Positions 3,964-57,454 of a DNA stretch of 61,596 bases are shown one piece after another. The position numbers and the translations under genes are program-made. This DNA is from Chloroflexota bacterium (GTDB lineage Bacteria; Chloroflexota; Dehalococcoidia; Lucifugimonadales; UBA3495). The notes beneath the pieces were generated by a model. It was not told the origin of the DNA. It did no database searches and worked only from the letters and a program-made list of their open reading frames with translations. The stretch is taken from assembly GCA_027624135.1 (NCBI GenBank), contig JAQBXL010000003.1, positions 1-61,596 on the forward strand. The letters run 5' to 3'. Numbering within the stretch: position 1 is the stretch's first letter; each line of letters starts with the position of its first letter.

Positions 3964-5589
3964 CTAGTCGTGCATGAAGTCTTGGATGTCTGCGGGCAGC
4001 GGCACGAACTCGGGAATCTCGGTGATGATCGCCTCGGTGGTAATCATCATCCCGGCGATACTGCCCGCGTTCTCCAAGGCTGACCGCGTGACTTTGACCG
4101 GATCAATGATCCCTGCTTCGATCAGGTGGCAGAACTCCCCACGGTCGGCGTCGAAGCCCCAGTCACCTTCTCCGTTTCGCACGCCTTCAAGGATCACCGG
4201 GCCGTCGTGGCCGGCATTCTGTGCGATGAGCAACAGGGGTGCGCTGAGGGAGTCGCGAACGAGGCGCACGCCCAGAGCCTGTTCGGCTTCCAGGGTCTTT
4301 TCCAGATCGACCAAGACCTGTCCGGCCCGAACCAGAGCGACTCCGCCGCCGGGCACGATACCTTCTTCAATGGCGGCCCTGGTTGCCGAGAGGGCGTCTT
4401 CAGCCCGAGATTTGCGCTCATTGATCTCAGGTTCGGTGGCACCGCCAATCTTAAGCACTGCAACACCGCCAACCAAGGCGGCCATGCGCTCTTGCAGTTT
4501 TTCACGGTCGTAGTCGGAAGTGGTCTCCTCGATCTGGACCCTTAATTGTTCCAACCGGTCTTTGATGGCCTGCTCGTCGCCGCGGCCTTCAACGATAGTG
4601 GATTCGTCTTTGCTGGCGATGAGCCGTCGGGCGGTTCCCAACATGGAAATCTCGGCGTCTTCAACCTTGAGACCCCGGTCGGCGCTGACGACGGTGCCAC
4701 CGGTCACGATGGCGATATCTTCCAGCAATGCCTTGCGGCGCTCTCCGAATCCGGGGGCCTTGATGGCAACGCAATCGATCGTGCCCCGCAGCTTGTTGAC
4801 CACCAGGGTGGACAGGGCCTCTCTATCTACATCTTCGGCGATGATCACCAGAGATCGTTTTCCATCTTGTAGCAATTTCTCCATGATTCCGATCACATCT
4901 TTCGAGGTGCTGATCTTCTGGTCGGTGATCAGGAACATGGGCTCTTCGATGGCAGCTACCATCCGCTCTGTGTCGCTAACGAAATGAGGGGACAGGTAAC
5001 CGCGATCAACGCGGACTCCCTCCACAAATTCCAATTCATCTAGTAGAGACTTGGACTCTTCAATGGTGACCACTCCATCCCTGCCCACTTTGTCGAGGGC
5101 ATCCGCCAACAATTGAGCGATGGCTTCTTCGTGGGCGGAGAGTGCGGCAACCCTGGCGATCTGCTCACGGCCCTCCACGGGGATGGCCATGGATTTTAAT
5201 TCGGCTACCACTGCGGCCACGGCCTGGTTGATTCCGTCGCGGATGCCGATGCCATTGGCGCCGGATGCCACGTTCATGAAGCCGTTGCGGACGATTGACT
5301 GGGTCAGGACCACGGAGGTAGTCGTGCCGTCGCCGACCGCGTCGTTGGTCTTGGAGGCAGCTTCTTTGACGAGCTGCGCCCCCAGATTTTCGTAAGGATC
5401 AAGGAGTTCAACTTCTTTGGCAATGGTGACGCCGTCGCTGCAGACCACTGGCAAGCCAAACATTCGGCTAAGCAGCACGTTGCGACCGCTGGGGCCCAGG
5501 GTCAGGCCCACCACCCGCTTAAGCTCATCCACGCCCCGCATCATCCTGGTGCGGGCTTCTTCATCAAAAGCCAGTTGCTTGTCCGCCAT
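3964..5589 (-). CDS. groEL: chaperonin GroEL (divergent, no GGM tail)
   Basis: TLGPSGRNV, DGVTIAKE, GDGTTT, KAPGFGERRK, GIVPGGG, GIIDPVKVTRSALENA. Confidence 0.97.
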   Translation of the reverse strand: MADKQLAFDEEARTRMMRGVDELKRVVGLTLGPSGRNVLLSRMFGLPVVCSDGVTIAKEVELLDPYENLGAQLVKEAASKTNDAVGDGTTTSVVLTQSIVRNGFMNVASGANGIGIRDGINQAVAAVVAELKSMAIPVEGREQIARVAALSAHEEAIAQLLADALDKVGRDGVVTIEESKSLLDELEFVEGVRVDRGYLSPHFVSDTERMVAAIEEPMFLITDQKISTSKDVIGIMEKLLQDGKRSLVIIAEDVDREALSTLVVNKLRGTIDCVAIKAPGFGERRKALLEDIAIVTGGTVVSADRGLKVEDAEISMLGTARRLIASKDESTIVEGRGDEQAIKDRLEQLRVQIEETTSDYDREKLQERMAALVGGVAVLKIGGATEPEINERKSRAEDALSATRAAIEEGIVPGGGVALVRAGQVLVDLEKTLEAEQALGVRLVRDSLSAPLLLIAQNAGHDGPVILEGVRNGEGDWGFDADRGEFCHLIEAGIIDPVKVTRSALENAGSIAGMMITTEAIITEIPEFVPLPADIQDFMHD

Positions 5590-54797: not shown

Positions 54798-55631
54798 GTG
54801 ACGACCGAGCAAAGCCTATCGATATCAGAAGCGCTGACTGTTTTTGTGGCAGATAAAAAATCTGCTAAGTCTGCCCAGCAAGGGCATCAGGAACTGGGCC
54901 GTTTCGTGGCCTGGTGCGGCAGGGAACGGAAGGTAGCCGACCTAGCCCCGTCGGAAGTGGCTGAATATGCCCAGCAGATCGGCCTTGGTGGATCCGAGTC
55001 CGCTCAACGCCTAAGCCCAGTCAAAATATTCCTCGCATATTGGAAAGACCAGGGATGGATCAATAACGGATTGGCATCCCACCTCCGTGTTCCCCGCACC
55101 CGCCGCACCCTCTCCGCAGCCGGCACTGCAACCCGCTCCTCCGGCCGTGGTAGCTCCTCAGGCTCCCAACTCAGTCAAGAAGGTTACGACCGCCTCGTTG
55201 GTCAATTGGACGGCCTCAAGGACCAGCGGGCTGCGGTTTTGGAAGACATCAAAAGGGCCATGGCCGACAAAGACTTTAGAGAGAACGCCCCTCTAGATGC
55301 AGCCAAGGACCAGCAGGGAATCGTAGAGCTTCGCATCCGCGAGTTGGAAGCTAGCATCAACAACGCTCAGATACTTCCCGAGGGCGTGTCATCCAAGGTG
55401 GCCCGTTCTTCAGTTGGCGCAAAGTTGACCCTGAAGGACACCAATTCAGGCAGGATAGTGGCTTATACGCTGGTTGATGTCCGTGAGGCAGACGTAGCGG
55501 AGGGCAAGATTTCTACCATCTCTCCGGTGGGCCAAGCCTTGTTGGACCGGACAGTTGGCGAAGAGGTGACGATTAACGTGCCAAAGGGCACCCTACGCTA
55601 CCTAGTGCAACGGATAACCGCCAGCAGTTGA
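54798..55631 (+). CDS. greA: transcription elongation factor GreA with an extra N-terminal helical domain
   Basis: C-half LSQEGYDRL, DFRENA, RIRELE, GKISTISPVGQALL, VPKG; N-half about 95 aa, integrase core-binding-like. Confidence 0.9.
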   Translation: MTTEQSLSISEALTVFVADKKSAKSAQQGHQELGRFVAWCGRERKVADLAPSEVAEYAQQIGLGGSESAQRLSPVKIFLAYWKDQGWINNGLASHLRVPRTRRTLSAAGTATRSSGRGSSSGSQLSQEGYDRLVGQLDGLKDQRAAVLEDIKRAMADKDFRENAPLDAAKDQQGIVELRIRELEASINNAQILPEGVSSKVARSSVGAKLTLKDTNSGRIVAYTLVDVREADVAEGKISTISPVGQALLDRTVGEEVTINVPKGTLRYLVQRITASS

Positions 55632-55660
55632 TTCAACCTCCACGATGATTTAGAAACTAG

Positions 55661-55695
55661 AAAGGCCGCCCCTGTTTTAAGAGGGGCGGCCTTTT
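55661..55695 (+). terminator. intrinsic terminator of greA
   Basis: AAAGGCCGCCCCT-loop-AGGGGCGGCCTTTT. Confidence 0.85.
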
Positions 55696-55765
55696 GCTTT
55701 GGCTAGATATGAGTCAGCATATGAGTGATTAATGACTCGACATAAAACGCCGTTCATCGCAATCA

Positions 55766-55799
55766 AATAAGGCACCCTCAATTAGAAGGCGCCTTATTT
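55766..55799 (-). terminator. probable terminator of the peroxiredoxin gene
   Basis: AAATAAGGCACC...GGCGCCTTATTT hairpin. Confidence 0.55.
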
Positions 55800-55827
55800 G
55801 TGACCCAACTTTGTGATGGCTACTCCT

Positions 55828-56289
55828 CTAGTTAAGCCCTTGCACCACTTCCAAGATGGCGTTCGGGTCGGGCAGGATTCCTGGCACGTAGGTCTCCCGG
55901 AACCTAACCACCCCTTCTTTGTCGATGATGATCACGGCTCTATTGCTGGCCCCGCGCTCCTCGTTCCACAGCCCGTACGCTTTGGTAGTGTCGCCTTTGG
56001 GGTGGAAGTCAGACAACTCGGGGTAGGGCAAACCACCTAATGCCGTGGTCCAGGCACGGTGAGCGGGGACGGTGTCGCAACTGATGCCCAGAACCTGGGC
56101 ATTAATATCCTCGAACCGCTTGTACTCCTGACGGAACGAGGTTGCTTGAGTCGTTCAACCAGATGTGAAGTCGAAAACGTGGAAGGAAAGAACGACTGTC
56201 TTGCTGCCCTTGTAATCGCCAAGGGAAACGTCCCCATCCGGGGAAGGAAGCTTGAAATCGGGGGCTACATCGCCAACTTCTGCCGGCAT
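55828..56289 (-). CDS. peroxiredoxin (AhpC/TSA, AhpE-like), probable selenoprotein with in-frame TGA at codon 45
   Basis: MPAEVGDVAPDFKL...VLSFHVFDFTSG-U-TTQATSFRQ...VLGISCD..AHRAW...LSDFHPKG...AYG...NRAVIIIDKEGVVR; both ORF-track pieces are in one frame. Confidence 0.88.
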
Positions 56290-56437
56290 ATTCCCGCCTT
56301 TAATGATTGAGATTTGAGCGCCTTTATCTGCGCCCAGCAGATTATACCGCACAATCCGGTGAGAGACATCAACACGCTTTGTTTGGGGACCAAGTTGGAC
56401 CAACCCCCGTGATATACTTGGCCGCGCTAGCTTCGGC

Positions 56438-57454
56438 GTGATTCTGGGCATAGGGGATGTGCACGTGCAGGCGGTGTTCAAGAGTGGGATTTACCTGCCC
56501 GAACTGGACCTTTGGCTAGATTCCACCAAAAAGCGGGAGTTCAGCCTGATCTCCCACGCTCATTCCGACCACACCGGACGCCATGACCGGCCCGTTCTGA
56601 CCCCCACCACCGCCAATCTGCTGGGGGATTACCTCAAGAATTCAGACCCGGTGCTGCTCCCCTTCCACGAGCCGTTCGATTCCCCTCGGTTCACCATGAC
56701 TCTCCATCCGGCCGGACACTGCCTTGGTTCGGCCCAGGCGCTGATCGAGTCCAAAGCGACCGGGGAGCGGCTGCTCTACACCGGTGACATCAAGAGCCGG
56801 CCAAGTCCCACCAACGAACCGTTGGAGATTGTACCCTGCGACACTCTGGTGATGGAGTGCACCTACGGGCGGCCCGAGTACGTGTTCCCACCCCAAGATC
56901 AGGTCTTGGAGATTGCCTACCGGACGCTGAGAATGTGGTTGTCCCGCGGCGAACGCCCGGTGGTGCAAGGCTGGCGGCTGGGAAAATCCCAAGAGATACT
57001 TCATTACCTGCTCGGCCAGGGGTTCGATGTGCTGGTGGAGGAAAGTATCTATCTGGGTACTCAGGTGTACCTGGAGGCTGGAGTGGAGTTTCCGGGACAG
57101 GTCAATAAGTTTGAAGGAGACTGGCCCGAGGGTTGGGTTTTGTTGTTCCCGCCGGGCAAGCGCCGGGAAGCCCTGAAGGGTTTCCGGGGGAAGCGGACGT
57201 TGGAGCTAACCGGTTGGGCGGCTTCGGGAAGCATGCCTTGGGGCAGCGGCGCTGACGCCAGCCTGCCTTACAGCGATCACCCCGACTTCAACGAACTGGT
57301 GGAATACGTCCAGGCCGTCTCGCCAAAACAGGTCTACACCGTGAACGGCTTCCCCGAACTTGCCGCCCGGCTCCGCGAATTAGGCTACCCGGCGGTACAC
57401 CTGAACGCCCGAGGCCAGAAACAGGACAGCGGCTACCAGATGAAGCTGGTCTAG
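56438..57454 (+). CDS. MBL-fold beta-CASP-like nuclease (ligase-associated exonuclease family)
   Basis: ISHAHSDH, PAGHCLGSAQ, LYTGD, MECTYG, LGKSQE, TGW, YSDHPDF; start uncertain (GTG 56459/56465). Confidence 0.88.
   Translation: MILGIGDVHVQAVFKSGIYLPELDLWLDSTKKREFSLISHAHSDHTGRHDRPVLTPTTANLLGDYLKNSDPVLLPFHEPFDSPRFTMTLHPAGHCLGSAQALIESKATGERLLYTGDIKSRPSPTNEPLEIVPCDTLVMECTYGRPEYVFPPQDQVLEIAYRTLRMWLSRGERPVVQGWRLGKSQEILHYLLGQGFDVLVEESIYLGTQVYLEAGVEFPGQVNKFEGDWPEGWVLLFPPGKRREALKGFRGKRTLELTGWAASGSMPWGSGADASLPYSDHPDFNELVEYVQAVSPKQVYTVNGFPELAARLRELGYPAVHLNARGQKQDSGYQMKLV

Follow-up and report, generated by a model that had tools for sequence, protein, structure and literature searches.

A probable selenocysteine-containing peroxiredoxin of the AhpE branch in SAR202-type Dehalococcoidia (Chloroflexota)

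Sohling and co-workers reportedly demonstrated by experiment in 2001 that PrxU of Eubacterium acidaminophilum is a selenocysteine (Sec) peroxiredoxin. Mycobacterial AhpE, a structurally well-known peroxiredoxin, is a 1-Cys enzyme that is reduced by mycoredoxin-1/mycothiol. The portions of the selenoprotein literature on which we draw place 'Peroxiredoxin (Prx), PF00578, TxxU' among the selenoproteins and give PxxxTxxU as the conserved motif of its members (2026 review, PMC13188914, citing Sohling et al. 2001), take T/SxxU/C as the defining motif of the Prx family and record 3 selenoproteins in Chloroflexi (Zhang et al. 2006, PMC1794560), and report 253 Prx selenoproteins with TxxU from 34 GOS samples alongside 7,348 Cys homologues (Zhang and Gladyshev 2008, PMC2398784, Table 2). 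In the relevant part of the Sargasso paper, the bacterial SECIS element that directs Sec insertion is described as having a small apical loop carrying a guanosine (PMC1088965).

The gene described here lies in a 61,596-nt stretch of DNA, referred to throughout as the window. Our analysis points, with a probability of roughly 0.93, to a functional gene for a 153-residue AhpC/TSA peroxiredoxin of the AhpE branch whose peroxidatic residue is Sec, in a SAR202-type member of the Dehalococcoidia (Chloroflexota). On the comparative sequence evidence, the TGA at codon 45 is almost certainly read as Sec, because this codon is conserved, both halves of the reading frame are under selection, a covarying hairpin is tied to the TGA-bearing forms, and the genome encodes SelB together with a SelD that itself contains Sec. 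The gene fits as a further member of the long-known 'Prx, TxxU' selenoprotein family, which is abundant in marine metagenomes; like that family it is of marine origin, has the PF00578 domain with TxxU at the site of the peroxidatic residue, is matched by homologues with Cys in that column, and has a stem-loop following the UGA.

A preliminary description of this DNA had proposed that two short open reading frames, at 56155..56481 and 55828..56031, form one interrupted peroxiredoxin. Both do lie in a single minus-strand frame of 153 residues whose sole break is the TGA at 56157-56155, within the context DFTSG-U-TTQA as that description had given it, and apart from this one in-frame TGA at residue 45 the frame shows no other damage. 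The Pfam AhpC-TSA model (PF00578) runs straight across the TGA, matching residues 5-130 with an E value of 2.5e-35 and 121.6 bits against a cut-off of 26, so that the join of the two frames is no chance alignment. We place the start at ATG 56289 because 30 of 30 close orthologues begin at the equivalent position, opening with M-P/A-A/G-E/Q; the TTG at 56481, with which the listed upstream frame opens, is not the start. The positions of the gene and its features are collected in Table 1. The terminator-like hairpin downstream of the gene may mark the end of the transcript. A promoter scan of positions 55600-56600 returned 0 sigma-70-like sites, and a TATAAT hexamer stands at 56346-56341 without a matching -35 element.

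Table 1. Features of the Sec-peroxiredoxin locus (positions are those of the window).
Feature	Position	Strand	Details
Predicted Sec-peroxiredoxin gene	55828..56289	-	ATG 56289-56287, 153 codons, TAG 55830-55828; translation, PF00578 and AhpE match
UGA codon 45, predicted to be read as selenocysteine	56155..56157	-	Peroxidatic Cys column
Thr42 codon of the T-x-x-U motif	56164..56166	-	T in 54/54 orthologues
Val38 codon, where the canonical P-x-x-x-T-x-x-C has its Pro	56176..56178	-	
Cys71 codon (G-I-S-C-D), the only other Cys; candidate resolving Cys	56077..56079	-	
Arg117 codon, conserved peroxiredoxin active-site Arg	55939..55941	-	R in 54/54 orthologues; aligns with the N-R-G Arg of AhpE
SECIS-like stem-loop	56109..56141	-	RNAfold; stem begins 13 nt after the UGA
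Small hairpin TTCC-GTCA-GGAG of the preliminary description	56125..56136	-	Not a conserved structure
Terminator-like hairpin, 13 pairs, 134 nt past the stop	55661..55694	-	Consensus scan alone: 2 sites against 0.9 expected

The assignment to the AhpE branch follows the nearest solved structures, which are those of Mycobacterium tuberculosis AhpE (E 2e-27 over residues 4-143) and in which U45 falls on the catalytic Cys of F-T-G-I-C. The seven best-scoring chains are all described as Rv2238c/MT2298 or as a 153-aa AhpC/TSA protein (E 2e-27 to 3e-25), with 2-Cys peroxiredoxins next at 4e-23 and weaker. AhpE (Rv2238c; PDB 1xvw, 1xxu, 4x0x and 5c04) and the window protein are both 153 aa long and co-linear over residues 4-143, and the Thr, the catalytic residue and the Arg of the active site all align; the window protein differs in having Sec for Cys, Val38 for the active-site Pro, and an extra cysteine, Cys71. 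His37 of the window protein stands opposite a Phe in wild-type AhpE, and the top-scoring chain, 5c04, reads H at this position. Two full-length relatives have been named 'mycoredoxin-dependent peroxiredoxin' by JGI. In NCBIfam all matches fall far below their cut-offs and no curated model covers the window protein. Its score against the PrxU model (NF040737) is 69.1 bits, where the cut-off is 270, and its 153 aa compare with a profile of 233 positions; it is thus like PrxU of E. acidaminophilum in its peroxidatic Sec but belongs to a different peroxiredoxin subfamily.

Conservation of the TGA across related genomes carries much of the argument. A protein search of 61 genomes from the same genus, family and order listed 89 matches at E 1e-20 or better, of which 55 contain exactly one in-frame TGA; the 53 best-scoring matches are all TGA forms, and the remaining 34 belong to a stop-free paralogue type at about 37-49% identity. 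Of the 36 other genomes at family level, 34 contain the TGA form, as do 17 of the 24 at order level. Our orthologue set comprises 54 of these 55 TGA forms (a contig-end partial second copy in genome G010 was excluded), and in every one of the 54 the TGA occupies the same alignment column and Thr42, U45 and Arg117 are invariant. Frames in the relatives were picked by alignment, because in GC-rich genomes the longest open reading frame pointed to the wrong strand. Another 200 genomes sampled from the phylum contributed 11 more TGA forms and 26 stop-free forms, giving, together with four relatives obtained separately, a comparison set of 65 Sec-type and 30 Cys-type sequences. All 30 Cys types, drawn from the phylum sample and the paralogues, carry TGC or TGT at the TGA column. 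The pairing of Cys and TGA homologues at one column that the preliminary description had looked to is therefore present, with 30 Cys forms against 65 TGA forms, and its proposal of Sec at the peroxidatic position of a peroxiredoxin is well supported by the TGA in 54 of 54 orthologues and 11 further sequences, by these Cys forms, and by the purifying selection described below.

Selection was compared on the two sides of the TGA with the Nei-Gojobori method in the 20 closest sequences, where 170-188 of 190 pairs were usable per segment after pairs with dS <=0.05 or saturated dS had been dropped. Median dN/dS was 0.114 upstream of the TGA, 0.097 downstream of it and 0.088 beyond the hairpin, and the similarity of these values on both sides indicates that purifying selection acts on the downstream half just as it does on the upstream half. 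A TGA unique to this genome combined with relaxed selection downstream had been named beforehand as evidence that would count against a selenoprotein; instead, the TGA is shared by 54 of 54 orthologues and the downstream segment is as constrained as the upstream one. Contigs from two DNA and two RNA (metatranscriptome) libraries bridge the TGA, although contigs as such cannot prove transcription. Differences between the library contigs and the window at 56149, 56152, 56164, 55941 and 55942 are synonymous in the peroxiredoxin frame when checked by hand, and among 40 listed of 115 there were no differences at 56155-56157.

Peroxiredoxin copy number varies among these genomes. Two TGA-bearing copies occur in some order-level genomes, among them G043 (C4:82012-83671), with about 0.8 kb between the copies on the same strand, and G049 (C1:593524-593967 and C2:1089553-1089993). 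A Cys-type paralogue accompanies the Sec form in most family genomes. In the genome of the window this paralogue, at C15:3833-4300 (locus L076), has 44% identity to the Sec form, retains the canonical Pro, and has a second Cys five residues past the first (F-T-G-V-C-T-T-E-M-C).

The region immediately 3' of the UGA contains a stem-loop that we interpret as a conserved putative recoding element. In the RNAfold structure a lower stem of CCUCG/CGAGG, in which 56141-56137 pair with 56113-56109, is followed by a 2x2 internal loop and an upper stem of CCGU/GCGG, in which 56134-56131 pair with 56119-56116, and these enclose an 11-nt apical region at 56130-56120, CAGGAGUACAA, that contains two G. The window's own fold is unremarkable in energy (z -1.53; 15 of 200 shuffles fold as well or better), and the case for the element comes from the alignment. 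Over the ungapped 54-sequence alignment the named structure is paired in 81.5% of cells, compared with 31-48% when it is slid along the alignment, a comparison in which a structure derived from one of the aligned sequences is favoured, and with 72.2% in shuffles, 0 of 500 of which reached as high a value. The lower stem alone is paired in 88.5% of cells of the 54 sequences, again with 0 of 500 shuffles as high, and each of its 5 pairs has been altered on both sides somewhere in the alignment, in 19 cells where 3.2 would be expected. RNAalifold returned no consensus structure for the 54-sequence alignment, a result that we attribute, like the many unpaired cells in three of the upper pairs, to an upper-stem register that shifts between lineages.

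Conservation of the encoded amino acids (S-F-R…R-F-E) could mimic such a structure, and we therefore compared Sec forms with Cys forms. Over the 52 nt after the codon, the median minimum free energy is -16.1 kcal/mol in the 65 Sec forms and -10.3 kcal/mol in the 30 Cys forms, and the median z, from 200 shuffles each, is -2.11 and -0.20, respectively (Mann-Whitney p 3e-8, computed over kin that are not independent). The better folding of Sec forms indicates that the hairpin goes with the TGA and not with the protein family, and this, together with the compensatory changes that have kept the stem-loop at 56141-56109, is what its designation as a putative recoding element rests on. The SECIS originally suggested for this gene was a different and smaller one, the 12-nt hairpin TTCC-GTCA-GGAG. 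It exists in the sequence at 56136-56125, with 4 pairs of which one is U-G, but does not hold up as a SECIS: pairing covers 51.9% of its cells where shuffles give 51.3%, at least as much pairing is seen in 158 of 500 shuffles, and slid controls reach 34-50%. The larger stem-loop contains the stretch of this small hairpin and competes with it. Compared with SelB/SECIS recoding of Escherichia coli fdhF, the two systems are alike in having a stem-loop within the coding region just 3' of the UGA and SelB in the genome, and the elements themselves show no sequence similarity. Set against the description of the bacterial SECIS in the part of the Sargasso paper cited above, the element here has two G in its apical region, whose 11 nt exceed what would be called small unless a single G-C pair added by RNAfold is real.

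The assembly to which the window belongs spans 2.98 Mb in 213 contigs and is 87% complete. It encodes a SelD (375.5 bits) with its own in-frame TGA in H-C-A-G-U and a frame that is otherwise intact; SelD is thus itself a selenoprotein, and the genome needs Sec to make Sec. The SelD gene lies at C87:12420-13340 (L009:1393-2439, minus strand), with its TGA in H-C-A-G-U-A-A-K. SelB is likewise encoded, at 359 bits, and both SelD and SelB score above their cut-offs. The expectation of the preliminary description that the genome would hold Sec machinery was thus borne out for SelD and SelB and was not for SelA and an intact tRNA-Sec, neither of which was found in this 87%-complete assembly. SelA was sought with TIGR00474 and by tblastn with the SelA of a same-genus genome, and ARAGORN identified no tRNA-Sec, and none with a UCA anticodon, among the 39 tRNAs of the whole assembly. 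Rfam tRNA-Sec matches above 40 bits proved to be ordinary Trp, Leu, Gly and Ser tRNAs and were rejected. Elsewhere in the window, ARAGORN reports at 5329-5425 on the plus strand an unusually long, 97-nt tRNA-Gln(UUG) with its anticodon at position 38; contig C57 of the same genome carries a normal 74-nt tRNA-Gln(UUG). All 5 relatives examined, one same-genus genome and four single-contig family-level genomes, have both SelA (544-560 bits) and tRNA-Sec (66-68 bits).

The only tRNA candidate with a UCA anticodon, at C127:2734-2839, scores 33.4 bits against the Rfam tRNA-Sec cut-off of 47. The segment C127:2730-2797, within locus L096 (C127:2730-3615), is the 3' 68 nt of a tRNA-Sec, 98.5% identical to the same-genus gene and ending in G-CCA, and the 5' third has been replaced by unrelated sequence, with a gene for a 263-aa tyrosine recombinase (PF00589, 86.9 bits) abutting the partial tRNA. 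One account of this arrangement, in an assembly where SelA was also not found and the synteny of selA is uninformative, would be that Sec decoding is impaired in this genome, its tRNA-Sec interrupted by an integrating element and its selA lost, so that no full-length product is made. However, a tRNA-targeting integrase usually restores the tRNA gene and deposits a partial 3' copy at the opposite end, and the repeat so created breaks short-read assemblies. The flank upstream of the same-genus tRNA-Sec maps to C62:976-171 in our genome and there runs off the contig end, so that an intact tRNA-Sec copy would lie in an assembly gap. We infer that an integrative element has entered tRNA-Sec, that the copy on C127 is the displaced partial one, and that the rebuilt gene sits in this gap. 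The assembly is 87% complete and in 213 pieces, and neither the SelD frame, which needs Sec, nor the peroxiredoxin frame shows other damage, so that impaired decoding appears improbable. For selA itself, the same-genus flanks have no close counterpart adjoining a contig end in our assembly: their matches are on C119 and at window 4324-5504 (66-69%, paralogue-like) and on C64 (85%, about 8.5 kb away). The region at window 4324-5504 has 66-75% identity to C119:10676-12190 of our own genome and to a gene that adjoins selA in G002, the same-genus genome, a resemblance that probably reflects a paralogous gene family and not synteny.

Could UGA-45 instead be decoded as one of the standard amino acids (Trp, Gly or Cys) through a reassigned code or a suppressor tRNA? 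The failure to find SelA or an intact tRNA-Sec in this assembly would accord with such a reading, as would the residues that databases show at this column: among 18 fetched database relatives, 10 have W at the Sec column, 4 have C (P0003, at 84% identity, and P0014-16), 3 are C-terminal fragments and 1 is garbled near the site. The W is explained by gene callers having applied another code on short contigs. Within our genome RF2 is present (458 bits against a cut-off of 370) and TGA ends 374 of 1447 long open frames (26%), which makes TGA an ordinary stop that is recoded locally. The position of the codon exactly at the catalytic Cys column, once per gene, the conserved hairpin that follows it in TGA forms only, the presence of SelB and of a Sec-containing SelD, and the lack of a UCA anticodon in any of the 39 ARAGORN tRNAs further argue against a general reassignment or suppression, which we judge more improbable still than impaired decoding. 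A lone stop in an otherwise intact frame also resembles a fresh nonsense mutation when seen in one genome, and a Cys codon mutated or misread as TGA, in a pseudogene or through a sequencing or assembly error, would have that appearance. However, 65 independent assemblies share this TGA, including some whose protein identity has fallen to 37-46%, the segment downstream of it evolves at a dN/dS of 0.097, and in a quick tree the window gene falls within an all-Sec clade of 53 sequences with SH-aLRT 96. In light of these comparisons we regard a pseudogene or sequencing error as excluded.

With selenocysteine as the preferred reading of UGA-45, a path from codon to catalysis can be outlined by analogy with the bacterial Sec pathway and with peroxiredoxin chemistry. 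The stem-loop 13 nt after UGA-45 would recruit SelB with GTP and Sec-tRNA(Sec), Sec would be inserted at the codon, and RF2 would not terminate translation there. The selenolate of U45, placed by Thr42 and Arg117, would then attack the hydroperoxide and become a selenenic acid, which would be reduced by a thiol, either that of Cys71, a family-specific candidate that would act through a selenenylsulfide, or that of an external reductant. The adjoining genes, whose products are a GreA-like factor, an RMMBL-domain metallo-hydrolase and a DUF3999 protein, suggest no redox partner. The downstream neighbour, at window 54798-55631 on the plus strand, belongs to the GreA/GreB type of elongation factors and is extended at its N-terminus by about 120 residues for which Pfam gives no match.

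Two sequence features stand out in the Sec forms of this clade. At position 38 the 54 orthologues have V in 44 cases, I in 5 and P in 2, so that the canonical P-x-x-x-T-x-x-C motif is not matched; across all 95 sequences, 28 of the 30 Cys forms have Pro at this position, compared with 8 of the 65 Sec forms. Where the part of the 2026 review that gives a motif for Prx selenoproteins has PxxxTxxU, the SAR202 clade thus has Val or Ile for the Pro. Cys71 occurs in all 35 family-level orthologues and in 4 of 19 order-level ones, and 8 of the 54 have no Cys at all besides the Sec. A quick maximum-likelihood tree of the 95 sequences shows loss of the Pro in the 53-row Sec clade and in a separate 5-row Sec clade, and the association of Sec with Pro loss therefore rests on few (about 2-3) independent events. 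The Sec/Cys label changes at least 4-5 times on this tree, on which the long branches of L075, L074 and L203 leave some of the switch counts unsure. One might read these patterns as a distinct Sec peroxiredoxin subtype of the SAR202 order, in which a Pro that is otherwise near-universal has been replaced (H-V/I-F-D-F-T-x-G-U), the pocket remodelled around selenium and, at the family level, Cys71 recruited to resolve the selenenic acid through an intramolecular selenenylsulfide. We consider this subtype doubtful on present comparisons, and the role of Cys71 as resolving residue is offered purely as a hypothesis. If the subtype did hold, it would amount to more than a Cys-to-Sec swap.

Our knowledge of Sec recoding and of the selenoprotein families is left unchanged by this finding, which we regard as modestly new in four respects: its scaffold is of the AhpE type, Sec is fixed across the order, the canonical Pro has been lost, and Cys71 is specific to the family. 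The Prx surveys, in the portions considered here, do not name SAR202 or Chloroflexota Prx, or the AhpE branch, as such, and their sequence lists may already contain the AhpE-like SAR202 subfamily. A full-text literature search found no paper treating SAR202 and a selenoprotein together, and the titles and abstract openings of the matches listed for AhpE and selenocysteine describe no Sec-AhpE. For enzymology, the family offers natural Sec/Cys pairs in the small, structurally well-known AhpE scaffold, together with a clade that dispenses with the Pro, and would lend itself well to studying what a peroxiredoxin gains from Sec.

The manner in which the gene is stored in databases has consequences of its own. 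A search returned 260 relatives at E 1e-10 or better, and the best 120 of these 260 are mostly 85-104 aa long and correspond to the C-terminal 52-69% of the query. The preliminary description had anticipated that standard pipelines would mis-call this gene, and the relatives, which among the matches listed are mostly C-terminal fragments or carry W at the site, agree with it. Because the gene is represented mostly by fragmentary or Trp-bearing entries and no NCBIfam model recognises it at cut-off, a mis-stored selenoprotein gene that nearly every genome of this abundant deep-ocean order carries would mean that the antioxidant capacity and the selenium demand of SAR202 are being under-counted.
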